Virus record (IMG/VR): IMGVR_UViG_2690316068_000002
DNA: 64,000 bases
Origin: a virus
Taxonomy: Duplodnaviria > Heunggongvirae > Uroviricota > Caudoviricetes
Strand: one strand, 5' to 3'
Below the pieces are notes generated by a model that was not told the origin of the DNA, did not search any database, and saw nothing but the letters and a program-made list of their open reading frames with translations. Shown in pieces: positions 6,511 to 63,891 of the stretch. The translations under genes were made by a program, and so were the position numbers. How positions within the stretch are numbered: the first letter of the stretch is position 1; the number at the start of each line of letters is the position of its first letter.

Positions 6511-7007
6511 TGGATGACTCCTTTACGAAGCTGTTCAGCAATACTTACGCATATCTCTGCGCCTCTAATCAGCCCCGGAACGTTCTTGTTTGGCCCAACT
6601 TCACCATCAACAAAATCAATCATCGCGTTACGAGCCATATCCACGCCCTGCGCACGTACTTCAGCCAGAAAAGCATCGGTGGCTGGAGTCTCCGTTAATT
6701 CGCTAACCCAATTATCTCCGTGTTCCTCGGCACACATCGCATCGAATGCTCGCTCAGATTCTTTCAGGGCTGCATTCTCCGCCGCTAATGCGTCTCTCTG
6801 CGCTCGCAACTTCTCAATTTCGGCAGCCATGTAGTAACCAACCATAGCGAAAGTGGCGAAAGGGTAGTCAGAATCATCAGGAGATACGGAGGCCATTAGC
6901 AGACCATCGTGCATGTTCTGGCTTCCATCAGTGATGGATACCGCATAAGAATCGCTGGTTTCCCGTTTATACAATACGACGACCGGGTTCTTGATTTTCT
7001 CTCTCAT
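6507..7007 (-). CDS. Hypothetical protein
   Basis: 166-aa ORF, coupled. Confidence 0.45.
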   Translation of the reverse strand: MREKIKNPVVVLYKRETSDSYAVSITDGSQNMHDGLLMASVSPDDSDYPFATFAMVGYYMAAEIEKLRAQRDALAAENAALKESERAFDAMCAEEHGDNWVSELTETPATDAFLAEVRAQGVDMARNAMIDFVDGEVGPNKNVPGLIRGAEICVSIAEQLRKGVIQ

Positions 7008-7561
7008 TACGATGCCTCTAACTTATCTAACTCTTTCAGCCCTTCACGTACCGCGTTCACAATGCGTTCCAGATACTGGTATTTCGGGTTTGGTACCGTT
7101 GGCCAGTCGGCATACCACGGATCATCACCAAAGAGATTCAGCAGTTTGTTACCGACGCCGAAACAACAGCAGCTTTCTTTTACGTCATCGGTGTTTTCCG
7201 CCTCGTCCCACATTTCACGAGCCAGTACGGCGTCGATTTCTCTCTCTCTTCGTAACTTTATGATTTCTGACTTCACGAAAAGCAGATTTGCATCGTTGTC
7301 ATCGTCGACCGTGCTTCGCAGTTGAGAGTCGAAATAGCCGATTAGATACTCGTTGCTGACCCGCTTAATGAACGTCTGCACATCATCACCGCCCATAGCA
7401 AACCAAGCCGCAGTCCACGCTTTTCCGTAGCAGATGATGGTGATTCTTCCCTTACCAGGTTCGTAGTTTTCAATCATCACTCGAACCGGATCGAGGCGTT
7501 CCAGATCCGTCAGCACAAAGGAAAGAACATCTATTTTTTCGACCTTCATGCAGCCTCCCAC
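7007..7561 (-). CDS. Hypothetical protein
   Basis: 184-aa ORF. Confidence 0.45.
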   Translation of the reverse strand: MGGCMKVEKIDVLSFVLTDLERLDPVRVMIENYEPGKGRITIICYGKAWTAAWFAMGGDDVQTFIKRVSNEYLIGYFDSQLRSTVDDDNDANLLFVKSEIIKLRREREIDAVLAREMWDEAENTDDVKESCCCFGVGNKLLNLFGDDPWYADWPTVPNPKYQYLERIVNAVREGLKELDKLEAS

Positions 7562-15999: not shown

Positions 16000-16020
16000 A
16001 ATTACAGACGCCAGAACAAA

Positions 16021-16614
16021 CTAAGCAGCCTTCTTTGATGGTCTTTTTTTCCTGATCACATTCGCAGGATCATACCCTCCCAGACTTTTCATGACGTCCA
16101 AAGGGATCTTGCTTATAGAGTGCCCAGCGTCCTGACAGAATCCTCGAAAAACAACGAGCATACTGCCACCGGGGTTGATGTTTACTTCTACCTGACCCAA
16201 ATTGACGTCAGGCTCGACAAACGCTACGCGGCCACCAGACAGAATAATCGTCTCATTCGCATACTCTGTTGCACGCTCATACCACTTTGTATCGAGGGAT
16301 TGAGGAATTAGCATCACTGTTGTAACTCCGCGAGCCTGCTCACGTATAGCAGCATCAATCCAGGGGGAGATTTTGGAGTAGGGTGGATTGAGGAAGGCAA
16401 TTGTACCTGGCTGTCCCCATTCAGATTTCAAAGCATCACGCTCAATGCCTATGAAATTAGGCAGCTTTGCGTTGTCCTTGTTGCAGGCAACGTCAACATC
16501 AAATGTCACTCCAAGATAACGTTGAATGGCAGAAAACAGCCAATCAGGTGTTCTCCAGAGGTCACGAAGAGAGTTGTCGCGCTTTCGCTGTTTGATTTTT
16601 TCGGCTGCAATCAT
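16021..16614 (-). CDS. Phage Dam-family N6-adenine DNA methyltransferase
   Basis: 197 aa; NPPYS catalytic motif. Confidence 0.7.
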   Translation of the reverse strand: MIAAEKIKQRKRDNSLRDLWRTPDWLFSAIQRYLGVTFDVDVACNKDNAKLPNFIGIERDALKSEWGQPGTIAFLNPPYSKISPWIDAAIREQARGVTTVMLIPQSLDTKWYERATEYANETIILSGGRVAFVEPDVNLGQVEVNINPGGSMLVVFRGFCQDAGHSISKIPLDVMKSLGGYDPANVIRKKRPSKKAA

Positions 16615-30741: not shown

Positions 30742-30967
30742 GTGTTTTTCCTTTGTGGTTATTTTGATACAGATATTAAGTGTGTTTGAGAGGCGAACAA
30801 TCCAGATAACACGGCCATTAAGAATGTTCACAGACACATGATTATGGCAAATTCATAGGTAAGTGAATACCTATTTTTATGGGCAGCAAAGATTTCTAGA
30901 TGTTACAAGCCACTCTATAATCGCAGTCACTTAATGATGACAACCAAACGAAAAAGGAGAACTGACG

Positions 30968-31471
30968 GTGAAACGCGTAATTATAGGGACGATGGCCATT
31001 GCTCTGATCGGATGCGTACCAAAACCACCTCAAGATGAAAAGTCAGCTGGCGGGTACGTTGATATTTACTCCACTTCAAGCGTAGCAATTGCCCAAGACA
31101 GAGCCGACAAATTGTGTGGAAGCCATGCCTATTATGTCTCTAACGACAATGATTTAACCAAAGTCATGGGTAGATACGCGCCTTCATTCCCAAAAATCAG
31201 GTTCAACTGTGATCTTGAAATGGCCGCTTATCTGGGCAGCAAAGAGGCAAAGGAGATCAAAATGAAACGCATAGAGGAAGCCTACAAGGAGATGTACAAG
31301 GCCCAATATGAGCTGAAAGAAGTGCGCCGTAAGAACGCTGATCCGAAGAAGCTGGAGTCTTACACAGAACGCGATCCGGACGGTACTATTCGCAGCTACA
31401 GCTTCTTGAATGGCAAGTCGTGCGAATCAATCGTGTACCCAGACGGCACGGGCAAAACGACTTGTGATTAA
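30968..31471 (+). CDS. Lipoprotein (plus-strand moron)
   Basis: 167 aa; GTG start after AGGAG; signal peptide with lipobox LIGC; terminator follows. Confidence 0.6.
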   Translation: MKRVIIGTMAIALIGCVPKPPQDEKSAGGYVDIYSTSSVAIAQDRADKLCGSHAYYVSNDNDLTKVMGRYAPSFPKIRFNCDLEMAAYLGSKEAKEIKMKRIEEAYKEMYKAQYELKEVRRKNADPKKLESYTERDPDGTIRSYSFLNGKSCESIVYPDGTGKTTCD

Positions 31472-31480
31472 TTCTTCAGG

Positions 31481-31509
31481 AGCACCTCGTATGGGGTGCT
31501 TTTTATTTT
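31481..31509 (+). terminator. Rho-independent terminator
   Basis: agcacc-N-ggtgct stem followed by TTTTATTTT. Confidence 0.6.
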
Positions 31510-31942
31510 GGGTCGCGAAACAGCATGTCGGCCATTTGCGAGGATTTGACGTAGCACTTTGCCATCATCGGCTGACTAGGGTTTGATGCGATCATGTCGG
31601 ACACCAGCATTGACCCATAGCCTTTTCCGCGAAGCTCTTTGACAATACTGACGGCACGGAGTTCAAGTCAAGGTGCGCCAGTCGGATCGAGTGCGGCACA
31701 GAACCAGATTAGTCCTACTTTTTGTCATCAGAACGATGCAGCAGGATGTAGATAAAATGCCCGGAGTATTGGCCCCGCTCGTTCGTCTTGATTGCCAGTC
31801 TGGTCTGCTGCTCAAAGGTTTTACCCCCCCTTTGATGTGAGGATCTCTTCGTAGAAGTGACCTTTGCGTGCGCCGTCCTCGAACTCAGCCATGATAAAAG
31901 GCATGTCTGTCACAGTTGCTGCCCTTGAATAAAATTCACTCA
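31505..31942 (-). pseudogene. Disrupted GNAT-like acetyltransferase remnant with poly-C tract
   Basis: ATG at about 31942; frame breaks at a C7 homopolymer (about 31824-31830); downstream fragment carries LRGKGYG motif in another frame. Confidence 0.35.
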
Positions 31943-32018
31943 TGTATTAATCCTAAAAGCCCTCAGTGTCTTTCTAATGCACCATATTTTATGCCTCGGT
32001 TAAACCCTGAGATTACGT

Positions 32019-32663
32019 TTAAAACGTCTCAGTGGGCTTTTTACGCGCTGCGTTTATGCTTATGACGCCAGCTTTTGGACGTGGGTCAACAAGGTTAAGC
32101 TCTTCTTCACTGTGGTATTCGAGGTCGAACTCACGTTTTACATGTCTGATGTAGATTGCGGTGAGCAGGCTATCTTTGGTCAGAAAGTGTCCGTAGGATT
32201 TGCGGATCACTTCTTCTACCTTCTCGATTTTCTCACCACCCATACAGAGATGATTAAACCGGCTGTGTTTCCGCAACATTTCGTCTACTGGGCCTGAGTA
32301 AACCTTGTCTACTTTCCCAAAACGGATGATTTTCCCTGTGTCTGCGGATACGAGGCAAATCAGCTTGTCTGGTGATAAACGATCTCGCCACGTCACACCT
32401 GAACGGAGTGTGTTGAAGTAGGGAGCATCCAATCCGATGATCGGTTTACGAAATGCGAGTAATGGAACGTACCTGATGCAACTGTTTAAATGAAAATTCA
32501 CACCAGCCTTATCAAGTTTAATTCTGGTTTCGTAGATCGGGCACTTCGCCGCTATACCGCAGATGTCACAAAGCAACTTCTGCTTATTCAGGTTGGAATT
32601 CGATTCGATAGTGTAGGAGCCGTCTTCAAGACGACGAACCCAGCGCGTGCGTTTTAGATCCAT
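32019..32663 (-). CDS. Hypothetical protein
   Basis: 214-aa ORF divergent from the rep gene. Confidence 0.5.
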   Translation of the reverse strand: MDLKRTRWVRRLEDGSYTIESNSNLNKQKLLCDICGIAAKCPIYETRIKLDKAGVNFHLNSCIRYVPLLAFRKPIIGLDAPYFNTLRSGVTWRDRLSPDKLICLVSADTGKIIRFGKVDKVYSGPVDEMLRKHSRFNHLCMGGEKIEKVEEVIRKSYGHFLTKDSLLTAIYIRHVKREFDLEYHSEEELNLVDPRPKAGVISINAARKKPTETF

Positions 32664-32750
32664 ATGTCATTTTTCTGTGATTGTTAGCCGAGGCAACGAT
32701 AACCCACCAGGTGCGCCGAAGGTAGTAAATGCCTGTTTTAATTATTCACA

Positions 32751-32759
32751 TTATCCACA
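32751..32759. promoter_or_regulatory. DnaA box (consensus 9-mer)
   Basis: TTATCCACA perfect match, just upstream of GATC cluster and iterons. Confidence 0.6.
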
Positions 32760-32764
32760 GGATA

Positions 32765-32823
32765 GATCCTAATAAAGAGATCCATAGATAGATCCTTGTA
32801 TAGATCAAATAAGATCCCCGATC
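32765..32823. promoter_or_regulatory. GATC (Dam-site) cluster in AT-rich origin region
   Basis: Six GATC sites within about 59 bp, several within AGATCC heptamers. Confidence 0.65.
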
Positions 32824-32864
32824 GCTGTAAGCCGCGCCACGACTGGTCTGAAGCCATGTTCATG

Positions 32865-32965
32865 TATGCTGTCAGCGGTAATTGATAGTCTGTCAGCGGT
32901 TCACCGTATGCTGCCAACTGTTTTTGGTATTCTGTCAGCGGCAAATCAAGTATGCTGTCAGCGGT
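32865..32965. repeat. Origin iterons, upstream set (5 direct repeats, about 21-bp periodicity)
   Basis: TATGCTGTCAGCGGT and variants starting at about 32865, 32886, 32907, 32928, 32951. Confidence 0.85.
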
Positions 32966-32985
32966 TGAATGACAAAGGTGTCCAC

Positions 32986-34080
32986 ATGTCCACAAAAAAT
33001 AAAAAAGGTAAAAATAACAAAGAAGTAGAAGATAACATCGACAACTTTGAAGAAGGTTCCCTTGAATTGTACACAGGGGAACTTGTCCCTAATAGCAACA
33101 ATACAGTCCAACCAATTGCGTTGATGCGACTGGGGTTGTTCGTCCCCACGCTTAAGGGAACAAAATACAGTAAACGTAACAAGCCAAATGAGATCGATGC
33201 TTCAAAGGAGCTTGTCCAGCTCGAAGTAGCCCGTTCTGAAGGCTATTCCGATATCAAGATAACCGGCCCTCGCCTGGACATGGATCATGATTTCAAAACG
33301 TGGGTGGGCGTTGTGCGTTCGCTGGCAGAATACGGCGAACCTAATGGTCGTGTCGAGTTAAGCATCACGAAATTTGCGAAGTTTTGTGGCTATCCATCGT
33401 CACAGATCCGCAAAACACTCCGCGACCGGCTTACAAACAGTCTTTTGAAGATCATGCGTACAACTCTGTCTTTCCAGAGAACGTATGAAGAAAAGAACGT
33501 CGACGGCTCTAACAAGATCTCGCTTCTGATGGTGCACCTCATCAATAGCGTGGACTACAACGAGCAGAAAGATACGGTGGTGTTCTATGCAGAACCGAAG
33601 CTGGCCGAACTATATCGCTTTGACCATAAGGTTCTTTTGCAGTTAAAGGTTATCAATAAGCTACCACGCAAAGAAACAGCACAGGCTCTGTACACCTTCA
33701 TCGAAAGTCTTCCAACCAAGCCTGCGCCGGTATCGCTTGCTCGATTGCGTGCGCGACTCAATTTGAGTAGCAGGAATGTCAGCTCGCAGAATCAGACTAT
33801 ACGTAACGGCTTAAAAGCTCTCCAAGATTTGGGCTATCTCGAATACAGCGAGATTAAGCGTGGGCGGTCGATCTATATCCAGATTCACAGCCGCAATCCA
33901 AAACTCAAAGTCGCACCGCCAAAACCTGAAGACATCGAACCCAAAAAACCAGATGAGAAAGCTGGGGAAATTGATGCCAAACAGAACATTATCAACAAGA
34001 TAACCGAACTTTCGCAGAATTTGACGCCTGAAAATATCAAGATGATTGAGATCCTTTCCAATAGTCTCAAACTGCTTTGA
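32986..34080 (+). CDS. repA: Plasmid-type replication initiator (iteron-binding Rep)
   Basis: 364 aa from internal ATG 32986; flanked by iteron sets, DnaA box and GATC cluster. Family assignment by architecture and recalled similarity. Confidence 0.75.
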   Translation: MSTKNKKGKNNKEVEDNIDNFEEGSLELYTGELVPNSNNTVQPIALMRLGLFVPTLKGTKYSKRNKPNEIDASKELVQLEVARSEGYSDIKITGPRLDMDHDFKTWVGVVRSLAEYGEPNGRVELSITKFAKFCGYPSSQIRKTLRDRLTNSLLKIMRTTLSFQRTYEEKNVDGSNKISLLMVHLINSVDYNEQKDTVVFYAEPKLAELYRFDHKVLLQLKVINKLPRKETAQALYTFIESLPTKPAPVSLARLRARLNLSSRNVSSQNQTIRNGLKALQDLGYLEYSEIKRGRSIYIQIHSRNPKLKVAPPKPEDIEPKKPDEKAGEIDAKQNIINKITELSQNLTPENIKMIEILSNSLKLL

Positions 34081-34197
34081 TATGCTGTCAGCGGTGAAAT
34101 GTATGCTATCAGCGGCTATTTTTCTGAAAAGTATGCTGTGAACGGTTAAAGATATGCTACCAGCGGTATAGTGAGATAAACGTATGCTGTGAGCGGT
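34081..34197. repeat. Iterons, downstream set A (5 copies)
   Basis: TATGCT(G/A)(T/C)(C/G)A(G/A)CGG(T/C) at about 34081, 34102, 34132, 34154, 34183. Confidence 0.85.
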
Positions 34198-34358
34198 AAA
34201 TCATCTATCACCACTCAATGCTCTGGCATACCTCCCCAGTGGTTACTAACCTCGAAGAGTGCATTCCATATAGGTTTGCGCTCACTAACATTCTATTGCC
34301 GTTGCGCTGATTGCTTGTAGTGAAAGGCATTTATTGCCTGCTGCTCCCTGATAGAACG

Positions 34359-34612
34359 TATGCTGTCAGCGGTGTTTTATTGAGGAATTTTTGTTTGGAT
34401 ATGCTATCAGCGGTAATTAATGGTATATGTCAGACCTTCGTATGCTGCCAGCGGTAATTTTGTTCTGGTTATACCCATACCGGTACACATTATTCATGCA
34501 ATGTCTTAAGTATGCTGTCAGCGGTAAAAAATCGAGTAAAGTATGCTGTGAGCGGTGAGATAAACTCTCGATATGCTATCAGCGGTAATTGATTGTGTAT
34601 GCTGTCAGCGGT
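34359..34612. repeat. Iterons, downstream set B (7-8 copies)
   Basis: Copies at about 34359, 34400, 34441, 34511, 34542, 34572, 34598 plus a degenerate copy near 34425. Confidence 0.85.
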
Positions 34613-34628
34613 GACGACTATGAAATAT

Positions 34629-34650
34629 GACTGCGGCACGTGCCGCAGTC
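34629..34650. promoter_or_regulatory. Perfect 22-bp palindrome bordering the iteron array
   Basis: gactgcggcac|gtgccgcagtc. Confidence 0.4.
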
Positions 34651-34659
34651 AGTTTGCAT

Positions 34660-34872
34660 TTAGTGTATTTTCTTTAACAGACCCCAAAGTGTTCCGGCTT
34701 TTGTAGTCAGTTTTCCTGTTTCTGGATCGTACATACGCCATTCACGCCGCTGGTGGACGATATACCCATCTTCACGTTCCAGACGCTCAAGAATGCCAGG
34801 CTGCTTGAAACCCTTAGCACGCCAGTAGCCGCTTGTTTTCTCGATTTCCAGACCTGCCAGTGTTAATGCCAT
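34660..34872 (-). CDS. Hypothetical protein
   Basis: 70-aa ORF. Confidence 0.4.
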   Translation of the reverse strand: MALTLAGLEIEKTSGYWRAKGFKQPGILERLEREDGYIVHQRREWRMYDPETGKLTTKAGTLWGLLKKIH

Positions 34873-35207
34873 TATCCAACCTCCTTGCAGTCATCGAAAA
34901 GGTAGCTTTGCTGAGAAGCGTGAACGCCATAGAAGCCCTTGTATTTGTTGTATACGAAGTGGTCTTCTCCTACGCCGGTTAATTTGCCATTACGGTTTGT
35001 GAGATATGGGGATGACAATACTCGATCGTCACGCACTACATAGAACTGGTCGCCGCTGTCTACGACCATCGCGCCATATGGTGCTTTTATGACGTCGGTA
35101 AAAGCGCCATTCTTAATGTCGGCTACAGACATTTCACACTGATAAACAGTGGTGTCGGCCACAACGATCGAAGAAAGGAACAACAGAGCGAATGGGATGG
35201 CCTTCAT
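34872..35207 (-). CDS. Secreted or periplasmic protein
   Basis: 111 aa; N-terminal signal peptide. Confidence 0.5.
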   Translation of the reverse strand: MKAIPFALLFLSSIVVADTTVYQCEMSVADIKNGAFTDVIKAPYGAMVVDSGDQFYVVRDDRVLSSPYLTNRNGKLTGVGEDHFVYNKYKGFYGVHASQQSYLFDDCKEVG

Positions 35208-40890: not shown

Positions 40891-41322
40891 TCAACGGGGA
40901 GTAATAAAGCGTTCAGAGCCTAATCGCTCTAATTCAACGATGGCCATCTTTGACGCCTGAACGATCATGTCTCGGCGATGCGAAAAGGCGGCGACAGCAT
41001 GTTTGTATATGTCTGCGATGTGCCGTGCTTCATCCAACTTCTGCCGTTTAGACAGATACTGTGGGTTTGTTTTAACCTTAGCGTCCAGTACAGACTCGTT
41101 GAACTTAATGCCGTTCATACTCAAGTTCTTACGCTCTGTGTCGTATAGCTTTGCTTCAACAGCTTCAAGGTTAAGTTTTGCCTCTGCGACATCTCGATCT
41201 GCCTGCGCTAGTTTTGACCCATACTCCATTAAAAGCCGTGGCTGTTTACGCCATACTTCCTCAAGGTTGTCGCGGTCGAACTCCAGATCGGCCATGATTT
41301 TAGAAAAAATATCAGTGTTCAC
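40891..41322 (-). CDS. Hypothetical coiled-coil protein (UvsY-like mediator possible)
   Basis: 143 aa; adjacent to SSB and RecA-like genes. Confidence 0.35.
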   Translation of the reverse strand: MNTDIFSKIMADLEFDRDNLEEVWRKQPRLLMEYGSKLAQADRDVAEAKLNLEAVEAKLYDTERKNLSMNGIKFNESVLDAKVKTNPQYLSKRQKLDEARHIADIYKHAVAAFSHRRDMIVQASKMAIVELERLGSERFITPR

Positions 41323-41529
41323 TCTAATAGGTTCCTACTTATAAAATCTGTATCAATTATATCAAACAGAGAACGGGTTTATGGCGTCATGTCAACTTTG
41401 TTCAGGGGAAAATATTGAGATCACCGAAGATAATTAGTTGTCTTATTTTGGTAAGCTGTGCTGACCATCTTTAGGTCACATACATGAGATGGATGGGGGT
41501 GTGGCATGAACGGATGAAATTCAGTCGCC

Positions 41530-41559
41530 GTTGACAGATGTCAACACTGTGAATAGAAT
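41530..41559 (+). promoter_or_regulatory. Sigma70-type promoter with overlapping palindromic operator
   Basis: TTGACA-N17-TAGAAT; -35 lies inside palindrome GTTGACAGATGTCAAC; AGGCG Shine-Dalgarno and ATG at 41577 follow. Confidence 0.6.
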
Positions 41560-41576
41560 ACTATTATCGGAGGCGA

Positions 41577-41801
41577 ATGAAGCAACATCCGAATAAGCAT
41601 ATTCAAGCAGCCATTGACTATGCATTAAGTAAAGGCTGGATCTGGGTAGCTGCTGGTGGTGCTGCACATTGTTTTTGCAGACTGCGATGCGGTAATCCAG
41701 AAGGTGAACACAAAACTCACCAAATGAGCGTATGGTCGACTCCGGGTAATCCCGAAAACCATGCCAAACAGATCAAACGAATGGTTGATCGTTGTAAATG
41801 A
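41577..41801 (+). CDS. Small protein, possible HicA-like toxin
   Basis: 74 aa; GW...G-AH...IKRMV pattern loosely HicA-like; Cys-rich. Confidence 0.3.
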   Translation: MKQHPNKHIQAAIDYALSKGWIWVAAGGAAHCFCRLRCGNPEGEHKTHQMSVWSTPGNPENHAKQIKRMVDRCK

Positions 41802-41861
41802 TTTCAAGGCGGCATTAGCCGCCTTTTGCAGAAACTGTCCAACTATCTTCAAAGGAAAACT

Positions 41862-42425
41862 ATGGCGCTTTATAACTTCACTCTGACGCTCTCAGGCGTA
41901 TCGTATGAGACGGAAGGACTGGAAGACGCGCTGTACCAAAACGGCTGTGACGATGCGCTAATTTGCGCATATGGAAACTCCGTCTATGTAGAATTTGACC
42001 GCGAAGCACAATCACTTGATGCAGCTATCGCATCTGCGGTCGACAATATTGAATCAGCCGGTATCGGTGCAATTGTTGAATCCGTCGACTCGGCTCTTGT
42101 GGGCTTAAGCGATATCGCGGAACTGACAGACCTGTCTCGCCAGGCAGTGGCGTTGCTCAAAGACGGTAAGCGCGGAAGCGGCGACTTCCCTTGCCCTGTA
42201 CAACGCATAAAAGGCCAGTCTCCTCTCTGGGATTGGGCTGATGTGGCTGAATGGCTCATGAATAACGGACGACTTAAAGAGGGCGATCAAATTGTCCAAA
42301 ATGCCCGAACTTTGAGTAAATGGAATCTGGCGCTTCGAAACAGCGTCTCGAAAGATTTCAACGAAATAGAGCAAATTGCGGAGAAACTGATTAAACGCCG
42401 CAAAGATATTGCGAAATGCGCATAA
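41862..42425 (+). CDS. HTH-containing protein, possible antitoxin or regulator
   Basis: ATG at 41862 with AAGGA Shine-Dalgarno; C-terminal LSDIAELTDLSRQAVALL HTH-like segment. Confidence 0.4.
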   Translation: MALYNFTLTLSGVSYETEGLEDALYQNGCDDALICAYGNSVYVEFDREAQSLDAAIASAVDNIESAGIGAIVESVDSALVGLSDIAELTDLSRQAVALLKDGKRGSGDFPCPVQRIKGQSPLWDWADVAEWLMNNGRLKEGDQIVQNARTLSKWNLALRNSVSKDFNEIEQIAEKLIKRRKDIAKCA

Positions 42426-42428
42426 TGA

Positions 42429-42448
42429 TGCCCGCCAATTGGCGGGCA
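42429..42448 (+). terminator. Terminator-like hairpin
   Basis: gcccgcc-aatt-ggcgggc. Confidence 0.4.
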
Positions 42449-42754
42449 TCTGTTCTCTGTAAAGGTGTCTGGCATCGTCTGGTTCGTTAACGTTTACTAA
42501 ACCAATGGTGACAAAAATTAGTTATCTTTGAAAAATAAAGGTTGCATGAAAAGAAGGGGTATGCGTTAATAGCATCGTTGGTTTGCAAGACAGACCTTAT
42601 GTAAGCAGTTTTAGTAAAGCAGTCTCAGTTCAGTGTTATCTTCTGATTTCCCTTCTTCGTGAGTCTCCTCCTTAAGTGCCTAAGTAAGTCCCAATCTATA
42701 CAGATCAAATTCTCGCCGCACTATGTGGCTCACAAAATTAAGAAGGTAATATCT

Positions 42755-42970
42755 ATGTCTAATAAAATGACTGGTTTAGTAAAATGGTTTAACTCTGATA
42801 AAGGCTTTGGCTTTATTTCTCCTGCTGATGGCAGTAAAGATGTTTTTGTACATTTTTCGGCAATTCAGAGTAATAATTTCCGCACTTTGGAAGAAGGCCA
42901 GCAGGTCGAATTCTCTATCGAGAATGGGGCTAAAGGCCCAGCAGCAGCAAATGTCGTTGCTCTAAGTTGA
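42755..42970 (+). CDS. Cold-shock protein, CspA family
   Basis: 71 aa from ATG 42755; [13 protein letters not shown]...[13 protein letters not shown]-track start 42659 lies in the long leader. Confidence 0.9.
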
Positions 42971-43245
42971 TTCAACGCTGATGATCCTCATTTCTACAAT
43001 AACGAAGACGGTGTAAGCCTGAGTGGATAGATTTGTAGGATTGTACAAGTTGAATAAATTAGCATGGTAAGGCCATGCTAATTAAATCGACACAACGGCC
43101 AGTTTATTCCATAAAAGTGAATTGCCCATTGTGGCGAAATGCGGGGTTGCCGCATGAATAGTCAAAGGCAGAAGCTAACTGCCGGCATGGCAAAACAAAG
43201 TGCGTAAGAGGAGTGACTTCCTCAACAAGCGCCATAATTCTTTAT

Positions 43246-43272
43246 AAACCCGCCAACAGGCGGGTTTTCTTT
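43246..43272. terminator. Rho-independent terminator (bidirectional)
   Basis: aaacccgcc-aacag-gcgggtttt. Confidence 0.6.
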
Positions 43273-43273
43273 A

Positions 43274-46200
43274 TTACTTATTTATTGTCTCCGCGATATC
43301 AGCCAGAATGGCCTCCAGTCGCTCTCCTTCTTCCGGTCGGAAGTACAGGATATTCGGGTTAAATCCGTAGAAGACGGTTGCATCAAGCTCTGGGAAGTAC
43401 TCCTTACGACCAATCAGATCTGATGGTTTACTCTTATTGTTAAATAGTGCGGTTGAACGACTACCACACGTCAAAATGTAGGTCGGACGCACCAGATTGA
43501 TCTCTTCACGCATAAAGTCGGTGAACTGGCCGATCTCGTCTTTGGTGTAGTCTTTTTCTTTGTCTTTAACCTTCTTGCAAACGCCTGTGACATAGAGATC
43601 GCCCATGCGTAAATCTCCAGCCGTCAATAGCTTGGCCTTAAAGTCGTCGTATCCGTTCTCCATGAAGTAACCGGTTCGAGCATCATTGCCGTTCGCATTG
43701 TCCAGAATGATCATGATTTTCGGCTTAATACCAATGTTGGGGCGGATTAGTTCATCACCTAAGCCCATTTCAGCCGCCATCCGTGTCATGAGCACGTTAA
43801 TCTCAGCCGAACGTTTGGGGTTCATCTCAAACGGACGTGAGGCTTTAACTGCGTCTATGACAAGGTTTCCCATCAATTCAGCCTGGTCGCGTAGGCGCTC
43901 TGGATCAGTTGCTGGCAGACTACCTGGCTCGATGGATGCAAACGCCCCTACTTTTTGCAGCGATTCGCGCACTCGACTATTACAGGCACGTTTCTCGACA
44001 GCTTCTTCGAATTGCGCCAGTGACTCGAATTTGCCGCCAACTTTTTCTCGCGCTCTCATGATGGCTTGGCAGCCATTCTCAGAACACCCCTTCACAGCAG
44101 AGAAGGGCGCATACAGCACCTGGCTGCCATCTTCAAGCGTGCGGATCTCGATTCGGTTAGATGACACGTTAACGTCTGGTGGCAATACGCGAATACCATA
44201 GGTCAGCGCATCTTTAACCAGCCCCTGGTGTTTATCTTCGCCAAGAATAGTGAGAGCAGCAGCGAAAAACTCTGCGGGATAATGAGTTTTCAACCACATA
44301 GATTGATAACTGATTAAGGAGTAGGCAACAGAGTGTGATTTATTGAACTGGTAGGCACCATTTTTTTCGAATGCGGTCCAGATCTCCTTCGCTTTCATCT
44401 CTGATAGCCCTGGATGTGACGCTGTAACGCGTACTGCGTTTATAGGTAGTTTTGCGCCGTGCTCAAGTGCCTCTTCGACAGTTTTCAGAGTTCCGTCTTC
44501 GCATTTAAAATGTTCCGCACGGTGAATGCGCTGTGTAGTGCCATCTTCCAGCTCAACGTCTATCCAGCCAGCTTGAGCCTGAACGATGAACTTCTCGCCC
44601 ATGCTCTTCATTTTTTCCATGTTCTTCTTACCGATTGCGGAACGCACACCGTCAGCTTCAGCCATTGTGAAGCCGGCAAGCAATCGAGTCGCGTTCATCG
44701 TCTGTTCCTGATAGAGAATCACGCCATTTGTTTCCGCGGTAAGTTCATCAAGAACGGGGTGTAATGATTCCGGCGTCATAAAGCCTTTGGCGACAGAAAC
44801 ATAGTCGTCCAACATGCCGGATTGGATCGGGCCAGGTCGGAAGAGTGCGGTCGTGGCGACAACGGTTTTAAAGCTCATTGGCTCAATGCCACCGCCTAGA
44901 TCTTTAAGCAGCTTGCGCATGGGGCCGGACTCCAGCTGGAATACGCCCTGTGTATACCCTGCAGCAAAACCATCCAGCACCTTGCGATCTTCAAGAGAAA
45001 TGGCATCAAGATTGATATCTTCACCTGTGTTCTCTTTTATGTAGCGTTTTGCACTATCGAGCAAATCGAGAGTTGCCAGGCCAAGCACGTCCAGCTTAAT
45101 TAGGCCCATAGCCTCGCAGTAACGCTTGTCAAATGCGATACAACGCGCGTCACCACGGCGCTCAACCGGTGTACGTTCTGTCAGAGGAACACCTGCTACA
45201 ATCATCCCTGCCGCATGTCTACCAAAGCCACGCATAAGGCTTTGTAACTTGCAGGCTGCATTGAATGCATCAGGATATTTTGTTGCGTATTTGTCGAGAC
45301 TTGCCAGTTGTTCGCGCAGCTCTTCCAATGGAAGGCTATCATCCTCGACGTTCTTCAGTTCTTTTGATACCGCCATATCTGCGGACTCCACACCATAAAT
45401 ACGAGCGGTGTCACGTAGTGCAGAGGCTGCGCCCAGGTAGGTGAAGTTCGGAATGCCTGCAACGTAATCTTCGCCGTAGCGTTCATTCAGATACTCGATC
45501 ACCTCATGGCGACGTGCCTGGCTGAAGTCCAAGTCCGCATCCGGCAAGTCGAGACGCTCAGGGTTGATGAAACGCTCAAACAGAAGACCGTGACGGATTG
45601 GGTCGACGTTGGTTATGCCTATGCACCACGCCACCAGAGAACCGGCAGAGGAACCACGACCAGGCCCGACAGGAATGCCAGTTTCACGGCTGTGATTCAT
45701 CAGATCGCGTACCATCAGGAAGTAACCACAAAATCCCAGGCGAGTCAGCGTGTTCATTTCGTACTTTAGCCGCTCAACATAAACCCTGTTCTCAGAAGCA
45801 GGTGGTGTGTATCCAAACTCTTTTGTGGTAAGACGTTTACGCAGCCCTGCAACAGCCAGTTTCATCAGCGTTGCAGGTTCGTCGTCTGCCATCTTGGGCA
45901 GTGCTGGTGGCAATTCATGCCAGCGCCATGTGCAGGCATCGATAATGGAGTCCTGCGTTGTTGAGGCCATTGCAGCTGTTACCGGCACATCCATGCGAAC
46001 GGAGAAGGCTTTAAGCGCCTCAAGGAGATGGCGACGACCATTGATGGCGTTATCTCGCTGGTGGGGGATACGCAGACGATGCGGCTGGTCGATTTTTATG
46101 TTGTTCGTAACCATGTGCGCAATGTCTTTAATGTCTGCATCGTCGATCGATTCGTAATAAGCGGGATAGAACGCTACTGGCTCTATTTTCAGTGCGCTGG

Positions 46201-51361: not shown

Positions 51362-52459
51362 AAAATTTACACGAATAAGCTCTGTTGATAGACGATCTCC
51401 CTTAAATTTGTGGTCAATTTCGTCTAAATCCGGTTGCTCTACGATTGATGCGATGTACGTCGAGAAACTTTCTAAGGCGTCTCGCATCTCGTCCATATAA
51501 TCGTGCCGGTCGTAGACCCGATCTATCCCCTCAAGACTGTGGTTCATGATTTTACGTGATACCTCCTGGCTTATGCCTAATGCTGGGAAGTAACTACGCG
51601 CAGTACGGCGCAAATCTCGGGGTGTAAATGGCTCAAGCTCCATCAGTTCTGGTCGTTCCAGAATACGACGTAATGCCTGGGCTATTGCCACTTTAGACAT
51701 AGGAAGGTCTTTCCCGATTTTTTTATTCGAAGGCACGAGCCACTGGCTGTCTTTACCATATTCGAACAACTCTTCAATACAAGTGCGCATTAATGAGCTT
51801 AAAGGCAGAGAATGCTCACGGGCAGATTTGTTCCTCTTGCCTTGATTCCAAACCCCACGCTTAAGATTGAACTCACTTTTTTTAGCCCGCAGTACTTCGT
51901 CAGGTCGTCTTGCGGATACAAGACATAGCCTGGCCGCCCATTTTGTACCAGCACACACATTGAAGTAGTCCCATATATTCCAGAACACCCATACCTCTGC
52001 GTCGGTCAGCTTCCGCTCGCGAGGTGTGGGCTTTGCGCCACCGGCAACTTTGTTAAGTGACATATCGTTTAACGGTGACACGTCTATCATCCCCTGGAAG
52101 GCGCACCAGCTAAGGAACTGCTTCATCAGAGAGAAAACGCGGCGGCCCATAACAATTTTGCCATCCAGTATTAGTGGGTTGACCAGTTGGTTCACCATGA
52201 ACCTATTAATGTCACTTACTTTTACATCGGCAATGTGCGGCAAAACATGTATCAAAATACAATGAACAGCGATCTCTGGCCGACGTCTGGTTATCAGCAG
52301 AGATAAGCGAGTGAATAACATGAATGCGTCCGAGAATCTCATGTCATTGCTGACCTGGGAGATCATAACGGCCTGCATTTGAGATGCTCTTTCGAGATAC
52401 TCTATCGCCTCTTTTGAGGTGTTCTCCGCAGCGCGTGCTCTGTCAAAGCTATTTTTCAT
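51356..52459 (-). CDS. Tyrosine recombinase / phage integrase family
   Basis: 367 aa; C-terminal RDLRRTARSY...NHS...VYDRHDY catalytic motifs. Confidence 0.8.
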   Translation of the reverse strand: MKNSFDRARAAENTSKEAIEYLERASQMQAVMISQVSNDMRFSDAFMLFTRLSLLITRRRPEIAVHCILIHVLPHIADVKVSDINRFMVNQLVNPLILDGKIVMGRRVFSLMKQFLSWCAFQGMIDVSPLNDMSLNKVAGGAKPTPRERKLTDAEVWVFWNIWDYFNVCAGTKWAARLCLVSARRPDEVLRAKKSEFNLKRGVWNQGKRNKSAREHSLPLSSLMRTCIEELFEYGKDSQWLVPSNKKIGKDLPMSKVAIAQALRRILERPELMELEPFTPRDLRRTARSYFPALGISQEVSRKIMNHSLEGIDRVYDRHDYMDEMRDALESFSTYIASIVEQPDLDEIDHKFKGDRLSTELIRVNFS

Positions 52460-52557
52460 ATGACAATCACCGAGTTACGCCGATGCACTGTATAAGTAAA
52501 CAGTATATTAGGCATAGATTCTTATAGGATCAAGAGTAAAAGTAACTCATTTTCAGC

Positions 52558-52590
52558 AATGATTCCATACATAGTAGGTATGGAATCATT
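52558..52590. promoter_or_regulatory. Palindrome upstream of integrase: inverted GTATGGAATCATT
   Basis: aatgattccatac-N7-gtatggaatcatt; single copies of the 13-mer recur near 55402 and 56414. Confidence 0.5.
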
Positions 52591-52671
52591 TAGACGTCGT
52601 TTTTTAAATTTTAAGGTAAACAGGAGTGAGTTTGGTGGGGAATAAAAAACGGCTCCTGTGAGCCGTTAAAA

Positions 52672-52920
52672 TCAGAGGGTGCTGACGTATGCAGCCAGTT
52701 CTGTGTATCCGCCAATCGGCTGGCCATCGATCAGCACCTGGGGGATAGTCTCTACCGGTTTATCAACAATTTCACTTAGTTTTTCCTTGTCGATACCGGC
52801 AGTGGTGATGTCGATGTACTCATAATCACCGTAGCCATGTCCCTTTAGTTGCTTCGCCAGCTCAACCGCACGTTTGCAGTATGAGCAGTTATCTCGTCCG
52901 TAGATAACGACTTTCATCAC
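52672..52920 (-). CDS. Glutaredoxin (Grx1-like)
   Basis: 82 aa; VVIYGRDNCSYCKRA CxxC site; aligns with E. coli GrxA. Confidence 0.85.
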   Translation of the reverse strand: MMKVVIYGRDNCSYCKRAVELAKQLKGHGYGDYEYIDITTAGIDKEKLSEIVDKPVETIPQVLIDGQPIGGYTELAAYVSTL

Positions 52921-53102
52921 TTCACCTCGTGCAACTGCTGTTCATTAACGATGATTGTGTCAATTTCGTAGCCGTGGATGCGTGGCTTTGGCTTCACTGC
53001 CTGACGAGCTGCGCGACGCGCCTGTTTACGTTTGTTTCCCATATAGAGTCCTTTCAAGTGAGTAAGTGTCGTGACTATAGCTAAAATGAATAGGTGAGTC
53101 AT
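52917..53102 (-). CDS. Hypothetical small basic protein
   Basis: 61-aa ORF, 4-nt overlap with grx. Confidence 0.3.
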   Translation of the reverse strand: MTHLFILAIVTTLTHLKGLYMGNKRKQARRAARQAVKPKPRIHGYEIDTIIVNEQQLHEVK

Positions 53103-53191
53103 TACCTATTTAATGTGTTTGGTTACTAAGCAGAAATGGCTTTGTGAGGTTGACACATTAGAAACGGCAAGACAGCTTTAAACTAGCTGAA

Positions 53192-54481
53192 ATGGTATGG
53201 TCGATTAGGTATCATTCAGTTTCAAAATTAACCAAAGACACTGATAAAATGCCTGTTTTGTTAATCCTCATACTTGGGACAGTGATGATTATTTTCTGGG
53301 ATACCGTCAAGGAAAACGTAGAGGTCATAGGTACACTTGCCACTTCACTTGCATTTTTCGCCACAGCATGGGCCGCTTACGAGGCAAGGCATAGTGCAAA
53401 GGCAGCAATGAGGGCCACTAGGCTGACGGCAGCTTCACTCCTTGAAATGAAAAAAGCCTCTTTTAAGGAATGGTACGGCATATTACTTGAACAGCATAAT
53501 AGATTACTTGAGGATGTTAACAAGACCTTGCAGGATGATAGGGAACTTAATGCAAAACTGGGAACGAATCTCATCAAGGCTATTTATTACCATGTAACCA
53601 AAAACTCCGTTTACATTAAATATATTAACCACATAGTTTTAATTCTTGATTATTTAGATAAAGACTTCTATTCGCCGTCATCAGCCGATTATGAAAAGAG
53701 AGCTTACATAGAACAGCTGCGCAACAGCATTAGTCCTAATGTAAGCCTGCTGATAGCTACATTCGGCCTTAATATTGACACTAATAAAACCTATGACGCA
53801 AAGAGGCTTTACAGCCTGCTAAGCAAGTATAACTTCTTCGAAGGCCAACTTTTTTTTGAAGAAGCAATATCGAAAGTTCATTATTTGGACTCTTATGCTG
53901 CTGTGATATTTGATAACGAATACCGAAAAGATGTAGAGTTTTATGTTGAAGAAATGGTTCGAGGTCGTGAGACCCCTAAAATCGATTCAAGATATCGTCA
54001 TTTAAGGGCTACGTTCGCAATTCTGTGGTCTTACAACAACCCCTGCCGACAACATTTGCTTCAAAGATTTAATGACCTACCTATGCATATGCGAAACAGC
54101 ATTGAGCTGAGGATGGAAAATGCAGCCGATAAAGTAGCTGAGTTCAACTCTTTGTTACTTGGTTTTATAGGCTGGGAGCTTAGAATCGCAGGTAATAAAG
54201 TGAGGGTGATCAAGGATGAAAAACATTTAAAGAGGCTAATAAAACTCAACGATAAGTATCCAATTCCCCCCCGAGAGAAAGGTATTCTGTTAACCAATGG
54301 TTTCACCAATAGATTCGCTGATGAGATTAAAAATAGTCTGTCTATGTATAAGTTAGAAAATGCCTATTTAGCACTCAACTCTAATCAACACAAAGAAAAG
54401 GTGATTGATGAAATTGTTGTTGAAGTTGAGAAAATTGTCGATAAATTTAAAGCAGAACTTGATTCTTTGGATTTCAACTAA
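53192..54481 (+). CDS. Hypothetical membrane-anchored protein (AT-rich, plus strand)
   Basis: 429 aa; N-terminal hydrophobic helix; lower GC than neighbours; own terminator. Confidence 0.5.
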   Translation: MVWSIRYHSVSKLTKDTDKMPVLLILILGTVMIIFWDTVKENVEVIGTLATSLAFFATAWAAYEARHSAKAAMRATRLTAASLLEMKKASFKEWYGILLEQHNRLLEDVNKTLQDDRELNAKLGTNLIKAIYYHVTKNSVYIKYINHIVLILDYLDKDFYSPSSADYEKRAYIEQLRNSISPNVSLLIATFGLNIDTNKTYDAKRLYSLLSKYNFFEGQLFFEEAISKVHYLDSYAAVIFDNEYRKDVEFYVEEMVRGRETPKIDSRYRHLRATFAILWSYNNPCRQHLLQRFNDLPMHMRNSIELRMENAADKVAEFNSLLLGFIGWELRIAGNKVRVIKDEKHLKRLIKLNDKYPIPPREKGILLTNGFTNRFADEIKNSLSMYKLENAYLALNSNQHKEKVIDEIVVEVEKIVDKFKAELDSLDFN

Positions 54482-54485
54482 GCAA

Positions 54486-54510
54486 AAAGGGGCCGAAGCC
54501 CCTTTAATTA
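54486..54510 (+). terminator. Rho-independent terminator
   Basis: aaaggggc-cgaa-gcccctt followed by T-rich tract. Confidence 0.6.
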
Positions 54511-54580
54511 TTTGCGCTGAAAAAAGTGTTGCTAGGATGTTAGCAAGCTATGGTTAAGAACGTCTGCCGCAATTGTCTAT

Positions 54581-54658
54581 CACAGCGTTGAGCGGTCTGG
54601 TTTATGTTAGCGGAGTCTTAATCTGGGTGATTAAAAGGCCAAACCGCTCAACGCTGTG
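54581..54658. repeat. Long inverted repeat (20-bp arms, 1 mismatch) abutting the 3' end of tRNA-Ser
   Basis: cacagcgttgagcggtctgg ... ccaaaccgctcaacgctgtg. Confidence 0.6.
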
Positions 54659-54660
54659 TC

Positions 54661-54747
54661 TGGCGGAGAGTAATGGAATCGAACCATCATCGCTTGCGCA
54701 ATGGGACGGTTTTCAAGACCGCTTGAGCACCATGCTCCCTACTCTCC
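54661..54747 (-). tRNA. tRNA-Ser (anticodon UGA), type II
   Basis: Hand-folded: GGAGAGT/ACTCTCC acceptor, G discriminator, encoded CCA, anticodon loop CUUGAAA, long variable arm, TTCGATT T-loop. Confidence 0.75.
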
Positions 54748-54960
54748 AGTTGTTGTGGTGCCGGGGGCTTCCCGGTGTCCTTTGGCTGGTTATCCACCGT
54801 GGACGGAGCCAATAGTCATCACAAAGGATCAATATAACCATTTCCCCGCGTGCGCTTAGCCGCATTCACCACAACGAAAAGAGCACTGTATGACGTTTGC
54901 ACGGACTTACGCTTAAAACAGGGCAGTCTCGGCGGTTCTCAATGCTCTTTCCTGTTGTGT

Positions 54961-55036
54961 TGGTGCCGGTTAACGGATTCGAACCGCCGACCATTCGCTT
55001 ACAAGGCGACTGCTCTACCAACTGAGCTAAACCGGC
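54961..55036 (-). tRNA. tRNA-Thr (anticodon UGU)
   Basis: GCCGGTT/AACCGGC acceptor, encoded CCA, anticodon loop CUUGUAA, TTCGAAT T-loop. Confidence 0.75.
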
Positions 55037-55040
55037 AATT

Positions 55041-55127
55041 TGGTGGGGAGTGATGGAGTCGAACCACCCGAGTCGCAATGACAGTAGATTTACAGTCTAC
55101 ACCGCTACCTCTACGGACTAACTCCCC
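55041..55127 (-). tRNA. tRNA-Tyr (anticodon GUA), type II
   Basis: GGGGAGT/ACTCCCC acceptor, encoded CCA, anticodon stem-loop GACUGUAAAUC, long variable arm. Confidence 0.75.
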
Positions 55128-55132
55128 TAAAT

Positions 55133-55207
55133 TGGCGATGGTGGGTGGATTCGAACCACCGACCAGTTGGTTAACAGCCAACTGCTCTACCGCTGAGCTA
55201 CACCATC
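55133..55207 (-). tRNA. tRNA-Asn (anticodon GUU)
   Basis: GATGGTG/CACCATC acceptor, encoded CCA, anticodon loop CUGUUAA, TTCGAAT T-loop. Confidence 0.75.
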
Positions 55208-55473
55208 AATTCGGCACTGCCAGTATTTATTACTCAACAGTGCCAATCGCGACGGTTTAGTTTCTGCCAGGAAACGCACCGCTACTTGCACTTTTCGTTA
55301 GTGCCAGACGCTTTCGACTTCGCTCAATAGTAGAAGGCAAAATCTTTAAGTAGATGATGTTTCTGAGGACAGCACCTACTTTGTAATTTATACAATGTGA
55401 TGTATGGAATCATTTGTTGTGAAAACAGGCACCAATGGCAACAGTGGTTAAACCTACACAACAATCCTGTCTT

Positions 55474-55595
55474 CACAACGTTGAGGCCACTACTCCGATT
55501 GAATGTTTGCCCAACATGTTACATATCAACGCTCGCCGGTATCTCTGTGAATAGAACCTTAGAATTGATAAAAATGTAATGGCCTCAACGTTGTG
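55474..55595. repeat. Long inverted repeat (15-bp perfect arms, about 92-bp loop) upstream of the tRNA cluster
   Basis: cacaacgttgaggcc ... ggcctcaacgttgtg; arm related to the 54581 repeat. Confidence 0.55.
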
Positions 55596-63847: not shown

Positions 63848-63891
63848 AAATATACCTTTTAAGAGAAGGCGTCTAATCACGCCTTCTCTTA

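Follow-up and report, generated by a model that had tools for sequence, protein, structure and literature searches.

Whether a tailed phage is maintained in its host as a plasmid, and by what kind of replicon, is the question raised by a short locus within 64,000 nucleotides of caudoviricete DNA (hereafter the window, meaning this whole stretch). Here a candidate initiator gene, embedded in a block of phage genes, is bracketed by short repeats. The original prediction read the locus as an iteron-controlled replicon of the P1 or RepFIB type, and the element that carries it as a phage-plasmid. The architecture of the locus, its initiator protein, the identity of the element and the readings that compete with plasmid maintenance are considered in turn below.

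Architecture of the origin and the iteron arrays

The iteron TATGCTGTCAGCGGT was searched over the whole 64-kb window with up to three mismatches allowed, and the result was compared with 100 shuffles. It matches 19 times against 1.33 expected, a count reached by 0 of the 100 shuffles, and 17 of the 19 matches fall within 32865-34612, every one of them on the plus strand. A position-weight scan of the window recovers the same 17 iterons at 18.9-33 bits, and no degenerate iterons score above 14.5 bits elsewhere in it. They are arranged into one group upstream of the initiator gene and two groups downstream (Table 1).

The upstream group agrees with the prediction in number (five) and in its spacing of about 21 bp. 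The two downstream clusters had also been foreseen, but they hold 12 iterons (5 + 7, at 34081-34612, all direct) instead of about 13; the higher figure may stem from two decayed iteron-like relics that can be recognized by eye at about 34423-34437 and 34470-34484. The first iteron of cluster A abuts the rep stop codon, and copy 9 of P1 incA likewise adjoins the end of repA. Between the two clusters lies a 157-bp spacer with no iteron, GATC site, Rfam match or convincing ORF. The size of the control array differs between relatives, which possess 8, 9 or 12 iterons, and phage PhiR41_1 has lost exactly 87 bp, from iteron to iteron (34511 to 34598), and with them three iterons of cluster B.

Table 1. 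Features of the locus (window coordinates; a point marks features given without strand)
Feature	Position	Strand	Remarks
Two abutting DnaA boxes, TTATTCACA (32742-32750) and TTATCCACA (32751-32759)	32742..32759	+	Left end of origin; regex scan
A+T-rich block with six GATC (Dam) sites and (A/T)AGATCC heptamer-like repeats, ending in GATCCCCGATCG	32761..32823	.	
GC-rich spacer GCCGCGCCACGACTGG between GATC block and iterons	32831..32846	.	15/16 bases as in P1 oriR; kept in Klebsiella relative
Origin iterons, five, direct, incC-like	32864..32968	+	Starts 32865, 32886, 32907, 32928, 32951; spacing 21/21/21/23 bp
Putative rep promoter: -35 TTGGTA, 18-nt spacer (= iteron 4), -10 AAGTAT	32924..32953	+	
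Tandem TGTCCACA TGTCCACA over the rep start codon	32979..32994	+	Read from sequence
rep, 364 aa, dual winged-helix initiator, P1 RepA homologue	32986..34080	+	Pfam, BLASTP, AF2/Foldseek
Control-iteron cluster A, five, direct, incA-like	34080..34200	+	Starts 34081, 34102, 34132, 34153, 34183
Iteron-free spacer, 157 bp	34201..34357	.	Between clusters A and B
Control-iteron cluster B, seven, direct, with two decayed relics	34358..34615	+	Starts 34359, 34400, 34441, 34511, 34542, 34572, 34598
Perfect GC-rich hairpin, 10-bp stem, terminator-like on both strands	34628..34651	.	Closes the module

At the left end of the origin the perfect DnaA box that had been pointed out is present, and a second box, which had gone unmentioned, adjoins it immediately to the left. 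Since the window contains three perfect boxes, a lone one would be unremarkable; the pair lines up with the 18-bp DnaA site annotated in P1 oriR and is kept both in a Klebsiella relative and in copy 1 of the SSU5 origin core. The predicted run of six GATC sites within about 59 bp is found at 32765-32823. This is the densest GATC cluster of the window, in which the next densest has three sites per 70 bp and the average is 4.3 per kb. In the alignment with P1 oriR, the cluster falls opposite the five Dam sites annotated there. By analogy, the A+T-rich GATC block is the predicted site of unwinding and would be subject to control by methylation and SeqA.

The putative rep promoter shares its alignment columns with PrepA of P1 (TTGCTA-18-TAGGAT). 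Binding of Rep to the iterons would occlude this promoter, so that the gene may be autorepressed; since a sigma-70 consensus scan returned no promoter within the origin iterons, this role is assigned by positional analogy with P1. The tandem repeat that overlies the start codon might conceivably provide weak right-hand DnaA boxes, and the Klebsiella relative displays GTATCCACA abutting its ATG, while P1 has CTATCCACA about 20 bp upstream of its own. Identity to P1 differs by part: it amounts to 73.8% in the origin core (over 107 bp), 57.4% in the rep coding DNA and 41% in the iteron block. The host-factor part of the origin is thus under the strongest constraint, which is what a working origin would lead one to expect.

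Beyond the hairpin that closes the module lies a convergent 70-aa gene on the minus strand (34660-34872). An Rfam scan of 32300-35000 gave no match at E<=1, and therefore no known antisense or regulatory RNA is recognized in this interval. The GC skew shifts its slope near 30 kb, but almost all genes lie on one strand, which makes the shift uninterpretable.

The Rep initiator

The initiator gene of the original prediction corresponds to the plus-strand ORF that ends at 34080. The HMM search that had been recommended for its product gives a match to Pfam PF01051 (Rep_3; Rep3_N) at 37.5 bits, above the gathering cut-off of 22.4 (E 3.9e-9), and this domain is present in all 120 Rep homologues listed; NCBIfam contains no match for Rep. 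Its BLASTP alignment with P1 RepA extends over 278 aa at 46% identity (E 3e-86) and takes in P1 residues 20-284 of 286; tblastn recovers the same relationship at E 2e-64. Identity to SSU5 RepA is 49%.

Sequence searches of the PDB, with the single Rep protein and with a four-sequence profile, returned nothing meaningful, and for this reason the fold was tested through a predicted model. The AF2 model (pLDDT 73.8 overall, 80-93 over the core) is composed of two winged-helix modules (WH1-WH2), and its best Foldseek matches are domains 2-3 of RctB (E 4e-8), RepE-iteron complexes (E ~1e-4), a Rep WH1 domain, Pi and TrfA. The model thus supports placing Rep in the fold class of dual winged-helix iteron initiators. 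Residues 310-364 form an extra C-terminal tail of 55 aa, in which a disordered linker leads to a helical hairpin (aa 329-363). The hairpin is confident in the model and is absent from P1 RepA.

Both the phage record and many rotated assemblies start the gene at the ATG at 32986, which is preceded by an AGGTG Shine-Dalgarno sequence. PGAP alternatively begins the protein inside iteron 1, and the resulting 404-aa Rep probably includes 40 surplus codons. The intact ORF is conserved at 98-100% across more than 100 plasmids.

The phage-plasmid and the role of its replicon

Circular plasmids of about 110 kb from E. coli and Shigella match the window at 97-99.8% identity, and they contain tail, capsid, portal and terminase genes together with a single Rep. 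One of them, pG749_2 (109.9 kb, circular, non-mobilizable), is 99.8% identical at the replicon; it carries virion genes (tail, capsid, portal, terminase) as well as nrdAB and dnaE, and only one Rep. The window maps to it at 97-99.3% identity and differs by accessory insertions outside the replicon. What the window covers is the DNA-metabolism half of the element, with the virion genes lying outside, and the element encodes its own DnaE (Pol III alpha), DnaB-like helicase and primase. A ParA/MinD-type ATPase with a 117-aa partner is located at the right edge of the window, about 31 kb from the replicon; the genes just downstream of the replicon are small hypotheticals on the opposite strand, with no parA-parB-parS among them.

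Among 5,426 complete E. coli genomes, 120 contain the replicon, in 185 places, 0 of which are chromosomal: it occurs exclusively in plasmid records, and its Rep is the sole plasmid-type Rep of the element. PhiR41_1, which is 99.3% identical, is a phage record that names E. coli K-12 MG1655 as the host. The forecast of a phage-plasmid is supported by these occurrences and by the circular relatives that combine virion genes with one Rep.

Taken by itself, the replicon shows 98-99.8% identity to plasmids of about 110 kb from E. coli and Shigella, among them p47258-4 (strain 47258, 110,844 bp) and p48956-3 (strain 48956, 110,850 bp). These two are 99.0% identical to it and have been typed as IncFIB(H89-PhagePlasmid) (PMC12838234). 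Sequence identity to them indirectly assigns the present replicon to this PlasmidFinder type. The E. coli phage-plasmids of the pECOH89-like or pSLy3 group, within the SSU5 supergroup, have been described (PMC7969092; bioRxiv 2025.09.12.675607), and Cyrano, a related phage-plasmid, produces virions and is kept at about 5.5 copies (PMC9928086). Searches of the open-access literature found no paper that dissects the origin anatomy of the IncFIB(H89-PhagePlasmid)/pSLy3 lineage; on the iterons of the pHCM2/SSU5/H89 lineage they yielded no more than a count in the Klebsiella pKPHS1 group, for which four iterons downstream and the lack of a known Rep domain were reported (PMC6735626).

Region 32742-34651 is very probably the plasmid-prophage maintenance replicon of a pSLy3/H89-type phage-plasmid of the SSU5 supergroup, most likely working in the manner of P1 oriR-repA-incA. 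By analogy with P1 and related systems, monomers of the 364-aa winged-helix Rep would bind the five origin iterons and, together with host DnaA at the paired boxes, open the adjacent A+T-rich block. The six GATC sites would link initiation to Dam methylation and to sequestration by SeqA, and Rep bound at the origin iterons would repress its own promoter. The 12 downstream iterons would in turn bind Rep and pair with the origin iterons, so that handcuffing and titration hold the copy number low and render the element incompatible with relatives that bear the same iterons.

The same module could instead, or in addition, be the lytic (vegetative) origin, at which Rep loads the helicase, primase and DnaE of the element after induction. 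The element does possess its own DnaB-like helicase, primase and Pol III alpha, no other initiator is annotated, and the C-terminal hairpin missing from P1 RepA could be a docking surface; in some phage-plasmids, such as N15, one RepA serves both modes, which provides a precedent. However, Rep and the origin core are homologous to the plasmid-mode replicon of P1 and not to its lytic repL/oriL, and a negative-control array of 12 iterons is a low-copy device that would run counter to runaway lytic replication, which leaves a lytic role unlikely. A more elaborate proposal, in which the hairpin docks the helicase, primase and DnaE of the element, one origin serves both the plasmid and the lytic mode, and the variable array sets the copy number or the threshold of induction, appears very improbable.

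The function of the downstream arrays can also be read differently, namely as a device for incompatibility or exclusion towards related phage-plasmids, or as a centromere-like site, and not mainly as a governor of copy number. Compared with SSU5 and Cyrano, Rep is only 49% identical and the iterons are unrelated while the flanking proteins are 73-94% identical, a pattern expected if compatibility is under selection, and the variation in array size between relatives points in the same direction. Yet a single array fulfils both functions in P1, so exclusion is no separate mechanism, and the ParA-type ATPase and its partner gene sit elsewhere in the element, which makes a centromere role of the iterons unnecessary; taken as the main function, either role is quite unlikely. 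As for the repeats being attachment or terminal repeats of a prophage, or a decayed remnant, with Rep not being what maintains the element, the record of Klebsiella phage pJN2-26 does mark two equivalent repeats as attL and attR. But the repeats number 17 and not two, they form three phased arrays on either side of a RepA homologue, and the ORF is intact, conserved as stated above, the only Rep in the 110-kb record and never chromosomal, which reduces this reading to a negligible chance. The att labels of pJN2-26 were rejected as an annotation artefact.

In practice these results are useful for annotation: precise labels can be given to an oriR-like origin, rep and an incA-like array. The att-site labels placed on the same repeats are wrong in at least one public phage record. 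The elements also have clinical relevance, since members of the same replicon type carry blaCTX-M-15.

Comparison with known replicons

Mini-F RepE/oriS (RepFIA), R6K Pi and RctB of V. cholerae share the dual winged-helix initiator fold class, and their logic is likewise one of origin iterons with separate control iterons. Their origin organisation is different, however, they are not phage-borne, and similarity to PDB chains is not detectable at the sequence level.

Much closer is the Klebsiella pKPHS1 type (IncpKPHS1 or pKpn group), whose Rep is 85-87% identical and which shares the iteron core, the origin core and the five origin iterons at the same spacing. By contrast, its downstream iterons number 8 and form a single block that lacks the 157-bp spacer. 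The IncFIB(H89-PhagePlasmid) replicon of the pECOH89-like or pSLy3 group is the identical thing, with no substantive difference.

In the SSU5, Cyrano (pLF82) and pHCM2-type elements the replicon occupies the same position in the genome and is flanked by the same genes (proteins 87%, 94% and 73% identical). The comparison with SSU5, pHCM2 and P1 that had been suggested gives Rep identities of 48-49% for the SSU5 type and 46% for P1, with a similar origin core. The SSU5-type Rep belongs to the same family, with the same kind of origin core and with iterons on both sides of rep. The SSU5 iterons, AACCACTGTAGAGAG, are nevertheless unrelated to TATGCTGTCAGCGGT, its origin core is duplicated and its downstream iterons occur in both orientations. 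Because these replicons fall into separate PlasmidFinder types, they are presumably compatible with the present one. A known theme among SSU5-type phage-plasmids is a conserved backbone in which one fixed locus carries Rep/iteron cassettes that have diverged sharply, and such divergence plausibly allows different members, and P1-like elements, to reside together in one cell.

The closest architectural match is P1 (oriR-repA-incA; IncY), as had been proposed: RepA is 46% identical, the oriR core 74%, and the curated part order is the same, running from paired DnaA boxes, GATC heptamers and a GC spacer through five iterons and rep to a control array. Both sets of origin iterons comprise five members (incC in P1, spaced 21-22 bp; here 21/21/21/23), and both replicons belong to a temperate phage whose lysogenic form is a plasmid. 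The two differ in iteron sequence (TATGCTGTCAGCGGT here, GATGTGTGCTGGAGGGAAA in P1), in the number of GATC sites (six against five) and in the control iterons, of which P1 has nine (3 direct and 6 inverted) and the present replicon 12, all direct and divided 5 + 7 around the 157-bp spacer. Rep is longer than P1 RepA by 12 N-terminal and 55 C-terminal residues; parAB follows immediately downstream of incA in P1, whereas the ParA-type locus here is about 31 kb away; and the phage itself is an SSU5-type siphovirus, P1 being a myovirus. The lineage-specific details (all-direct control iterons, varying array size, the Rep tail and distant partition genes) are minor, and the replicon, already catalogued together with its phage-plasmid group, is built almost exactly like that of P1.

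Origin core and iteron arrays

The replicon opens on a pair of DnaA boxes and is closed by a terminator-like hairpin; its components are collected in the table. Allowing up to three mismatches, the iteron TATGCTGTCAGCGGT has 19 matches in the window, where 1.33 are expected and none of 100 shuffles reaches this number, and 17 of the 19 fall within 32865-34612, all on the + strand. A position-weight matrix built from these 17 iterons scores them at 18.9-33 bits and finds no site above 14.5 bits in the rest of the 64-kb window. The original prediction placed five iterons 5' of rep at about 21-bp spacing, as they indeed lie, and about 13 downstream in two clusters. The two clusters stand, kept apart by a 157-bp spacer without iterons, but the downstream count is 12 (5 + 7); two decayed relics, recognized by eye near ~34423 and ~34470, may explain the higher figure.

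Replicon features and their window coordinates
Feature	Position	Strand	Remarks
Second DnaA box, TTATTCACA	32742		abuts perfect box on its 5' side
Perfect DnaA box, TTATCCACA	32751		directly 3' of second box
Upstream iterons (n=5)	32865, 32886, 32907, 32928, 32951	+	spacing 21/21/21/23; 5' of rep
rep ORF	32986 (ATG) to 34080	+	364 aa
Rep C-terminal extension	33913-34080	+	residues 310-364; absent in P1 RepA
Control cluster A (n=5 iterons)	34081-34197	+	downstream
Control cluster B (n=7 iterons)	34359-34612	+	downstream
Hairpin, terminator-like	34628-34651		perfect 10-bp stem; closes module against convergent gene

The perfect DnaA box and the six GATC sites in 59 bp (32765-32823) are likewise present as anticipated, the latter forming the densest such cluster in a window that averages 4.3 per kb. 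Direct alignment of window 32742-32848 with the P1 origin core gives 73.8% identity, with the DnaA pair, the GATAGATCC heptamers, GATCCCyGATCG and the spacer GCCGCGCCACGnCTGG in common, and the same core is kept in the Klebsiella relative (phage pJN2-26) and in Salmonella phage SSU5. This alignment shows that the origin and P1 oriR are homologous, beyond a mere likeness in layout. The rep coding DNA is 57.4% identical to that of P1 and the iteron block 41%, so that the part read by host factors is the most conserved and the iterons have co-diverged with Rep, a pattern to be expected of a functioning origin. The curated P1 annotation comprises an 18-bp DnaA site, five Dam sites, five incC iterons containing the PrepA promoter, repA, and nine incA iterons, the first of which adjoins the repA end. 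PrepA (TTGCTA-18-TAGGAT) aligns by column with TTGGTA-18-AAGTAT at 32924-32953, where the spacer is iteron 4. A consensus scan called no promoter at this site, and autorepression by Rep is therefore a step that we infer.

The Rep initiator

The phage record starts Rep at the ATG at 32986, to which many assemblies are also rotated and which is preceded by an AGGTG ribosome-binding site. The 404-aa Rep of PGAP begins at an ATG within iteron 1. Since every iteron holds an ATG, and the forty codons between the two starts (32866-32985) are stop-free, the long frame is open by accident of the iteron arrangement; the PGAP start is probably 40 codons too long, and the start that gives 364 aa, which has a Shine-Dalgarno sequence, is the more plausible one.

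The 364-aa protein matches Pfam Rep3_N (PF01051) with 37.5 bits (cut-off 22.4), which confirms its assignment to an initiator family. It is 46% identical to P1 RepA across residues 20-284 of 286 (E 3e-86), 49% to SSU5 RepA and 85-87% to the Rep of Klebsiella SSU5-like elements. A database search gave 477 homologues with E<=1e-5; PF01051 is found in all 120 of those listed, named at source as RepB-family, RepFIB or RepA initiators. Sequence searches of PDB chains gave no match to Rep, and its fold was therefore examined through an AlphaFold2 model (40-sequence alignment; pLDDT 73.8 overall, 80-93 across residues 70-305), which displays two winged-helix modules in succession. A Foldseek search with this model gave as its best matches RctB domains 2-3 (E 4e-8), RepE-iteron complexes, a Rep WH1 domain, Pi and TrfA. 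In the C-terminal extension, a predicted disordered, Pro/Lys-rich linker (residues 309-328) leads into a confidently predicted helical hairpin (residues 329-363; LTPENIKMIEILSNSLKLL), which P1 RepA lacks. SSU5 RepA has an analogous acidic tail, poorly alignable with this one.

The host element and its distribution

Across the 2.1-kb replicon region, identity to plasmid pG749_2 of E. coli is 99.8%. At >=80% coverage the region matches 121 plasmid records from Escherichia and Shigella, mostly ~110 kb and non-mobilizable. The replicon occurs in 120 of 5,426 complete E. coli genomes, in 185 places, none of them chromosomal. pG749_2 carries virion genes (tail, capsid, portal, terminase), together with nrdAB, thyA, dfr, dnaE, primase, DnaB-like helicase, ligase and integrase genes, and exactly one plasmid-type Rep. 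PhiR41_1, 99.3% identical, was deposited as a phage with host E. coli K-12 MG1655. The proposed phage-plasmid nature of the element is thus supported.

The replicon itself is already known as a named replicon type of a published phage-plasmid group, and Rep is annotated as a plasmid initiator in >100 public records. The 110.8-kb plasmids of strains 47258 and 48956, which are among the matches in complete E. coli genomes, have been typed IncFIB(H89-PhagePlasmid) and called phage-plasmid hybrids (PMC12838234). The SSU5 supergroup comprises the pSLy3, pKpn, SSU5_pHCM2 and pMT1 groups (PMC7969092), the SSU5 (IncFIB) replication genes are already in typing tools (2025 preprint), and the related Cyrano, whose RepA is different, makes virions and is kept at ~5.5 copies in each cell (PMC9928086). 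The present analysis adds a precise part list, the homology of the origin core with P1 oriR and a few details specific to this lineage that are open to test.

The window corresponds to the non-structural half of pG749_2 (97-99.3% identity) plus three accessory insertions; segments 5478-6804, 30772-32028 and 41302-43283 are missing or replaced in that plasmid. The second, immediately to the left of the gene next to the replicon, includes a 167-aa lipoprotein-like ORF (30968-31471) with no Pfam match, and the third substitutes for a DUF4365 gene and carries two ORFs, one of 199 aa and one of the CspA-like cold-shock type (42659-42970). When the window is mapped to annotated pG749_2 (record 52295-55586), metG (minus strand, cut at the window start) and divergent apbC/mrp, chromosome-type housekeeping genes, fall at 1-~2200. 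Four tRNA genes (Ser-tga, Thr-tgt, Tyr-gta, Asn-gtt) lie on the minus strand at 54661-55207. The cumulative GC skew declines at a steady rate over the first ~30 kb and hardly changes from there to ~56 kb, a slope change near the replicon that is confounded by gene strand bias.

Replication control and comparison with P1 and SSU5

The anatomy, homologies, fold, extrachromosomal distribution and sole Rep, all demonstrated in this analysis, are best explained by a P1-like plasmid-prophage replicon, very probably the correct reading; Rep homology, origin-core identity and matching layout all uphold the P1-type architecture originally proposed. The regulatory steps are established for P1 and related iteron plasmids, from which we infer them here. 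Rep monomers at the five origin iterons and DnaA at the paired boxes would open the GATC-rich A+T block, re-initiation would be gated by Dam methylation and SeqA, and Rep would repress its own promoter. The downstream array would titrate Rep and handcuff the origin, setting a low copy number and determining incompatibility.

The replisome genes encoded by the element and the extra tail on Rep could also suit a lytic or dual-use origin, but a 12-iteron brake and homology specifically to the plasmid-mode replicon of P1 make this unlikely. That the downstream arrays serve mainly as an incompatibility or centromere device is quite improbable, and such a role is not truly distinct from the P1 mechanism. 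That the repeats are att sites or a relic is effectively refuted.

Among relatives of this P1-like replicon, the origin set is constant at five iterons and the control array varies in size, with 8 iterons in the Klebsiella relative and 9 in PhiR41_1, the latter through a precise 87-bp iteron-to-iteron deletion. Full-length E. coli matches all span the same length as the window replicon and so presumably share its 12. In pJN2-26 (MZ779062), Rep iterons at 1378-1397 and 2648-2667 are labelled attR and attL, almost certainly an annotation artefact of a repeat-based prophage tool. In SSU5 (JQ965645), the origin core is in tandem duplicate 5' of repA (1755-2440), each copy followed by its own iteron set, with the GATC heptamers intact in copy 1 and degraded in copy 2; downstream iterons (3500-4110) occur in both orientations. 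The proteins flanking the replicon are 87%, 94% and 73% identical to those of SSU5, whereas Rep is only 49% identical and the iterons are unrelated, making the replicon a cassette that diverges while its locus stays fixed. A parallel pattern is reported for the replicases of P1-like elements, IncY and p0111 (PMC7969092).

By contrast with the 3 direct and 6 inverted control iterons of P1, all 12 here are direct. Also unlike P1, the likely partition locus is not adjacent to the replicon; ~31 kb separate the two, and the locus is at the right end of the window (63891-64000 and beyond; pG749_2 record 6290-7317). It consists of a 222-aa ParA/MinD/MipZ-type ATPase and a 117-aa partner, which has no Pfam match and within whose gene the window ends. 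The element shares with P1 an N-6-adenine methyltransferase of its own (~16000-16600; pG749_2 record 68328-68921), known here from annotation alone, by which the six GATC sites of the origin could stay methylated without host Dam.
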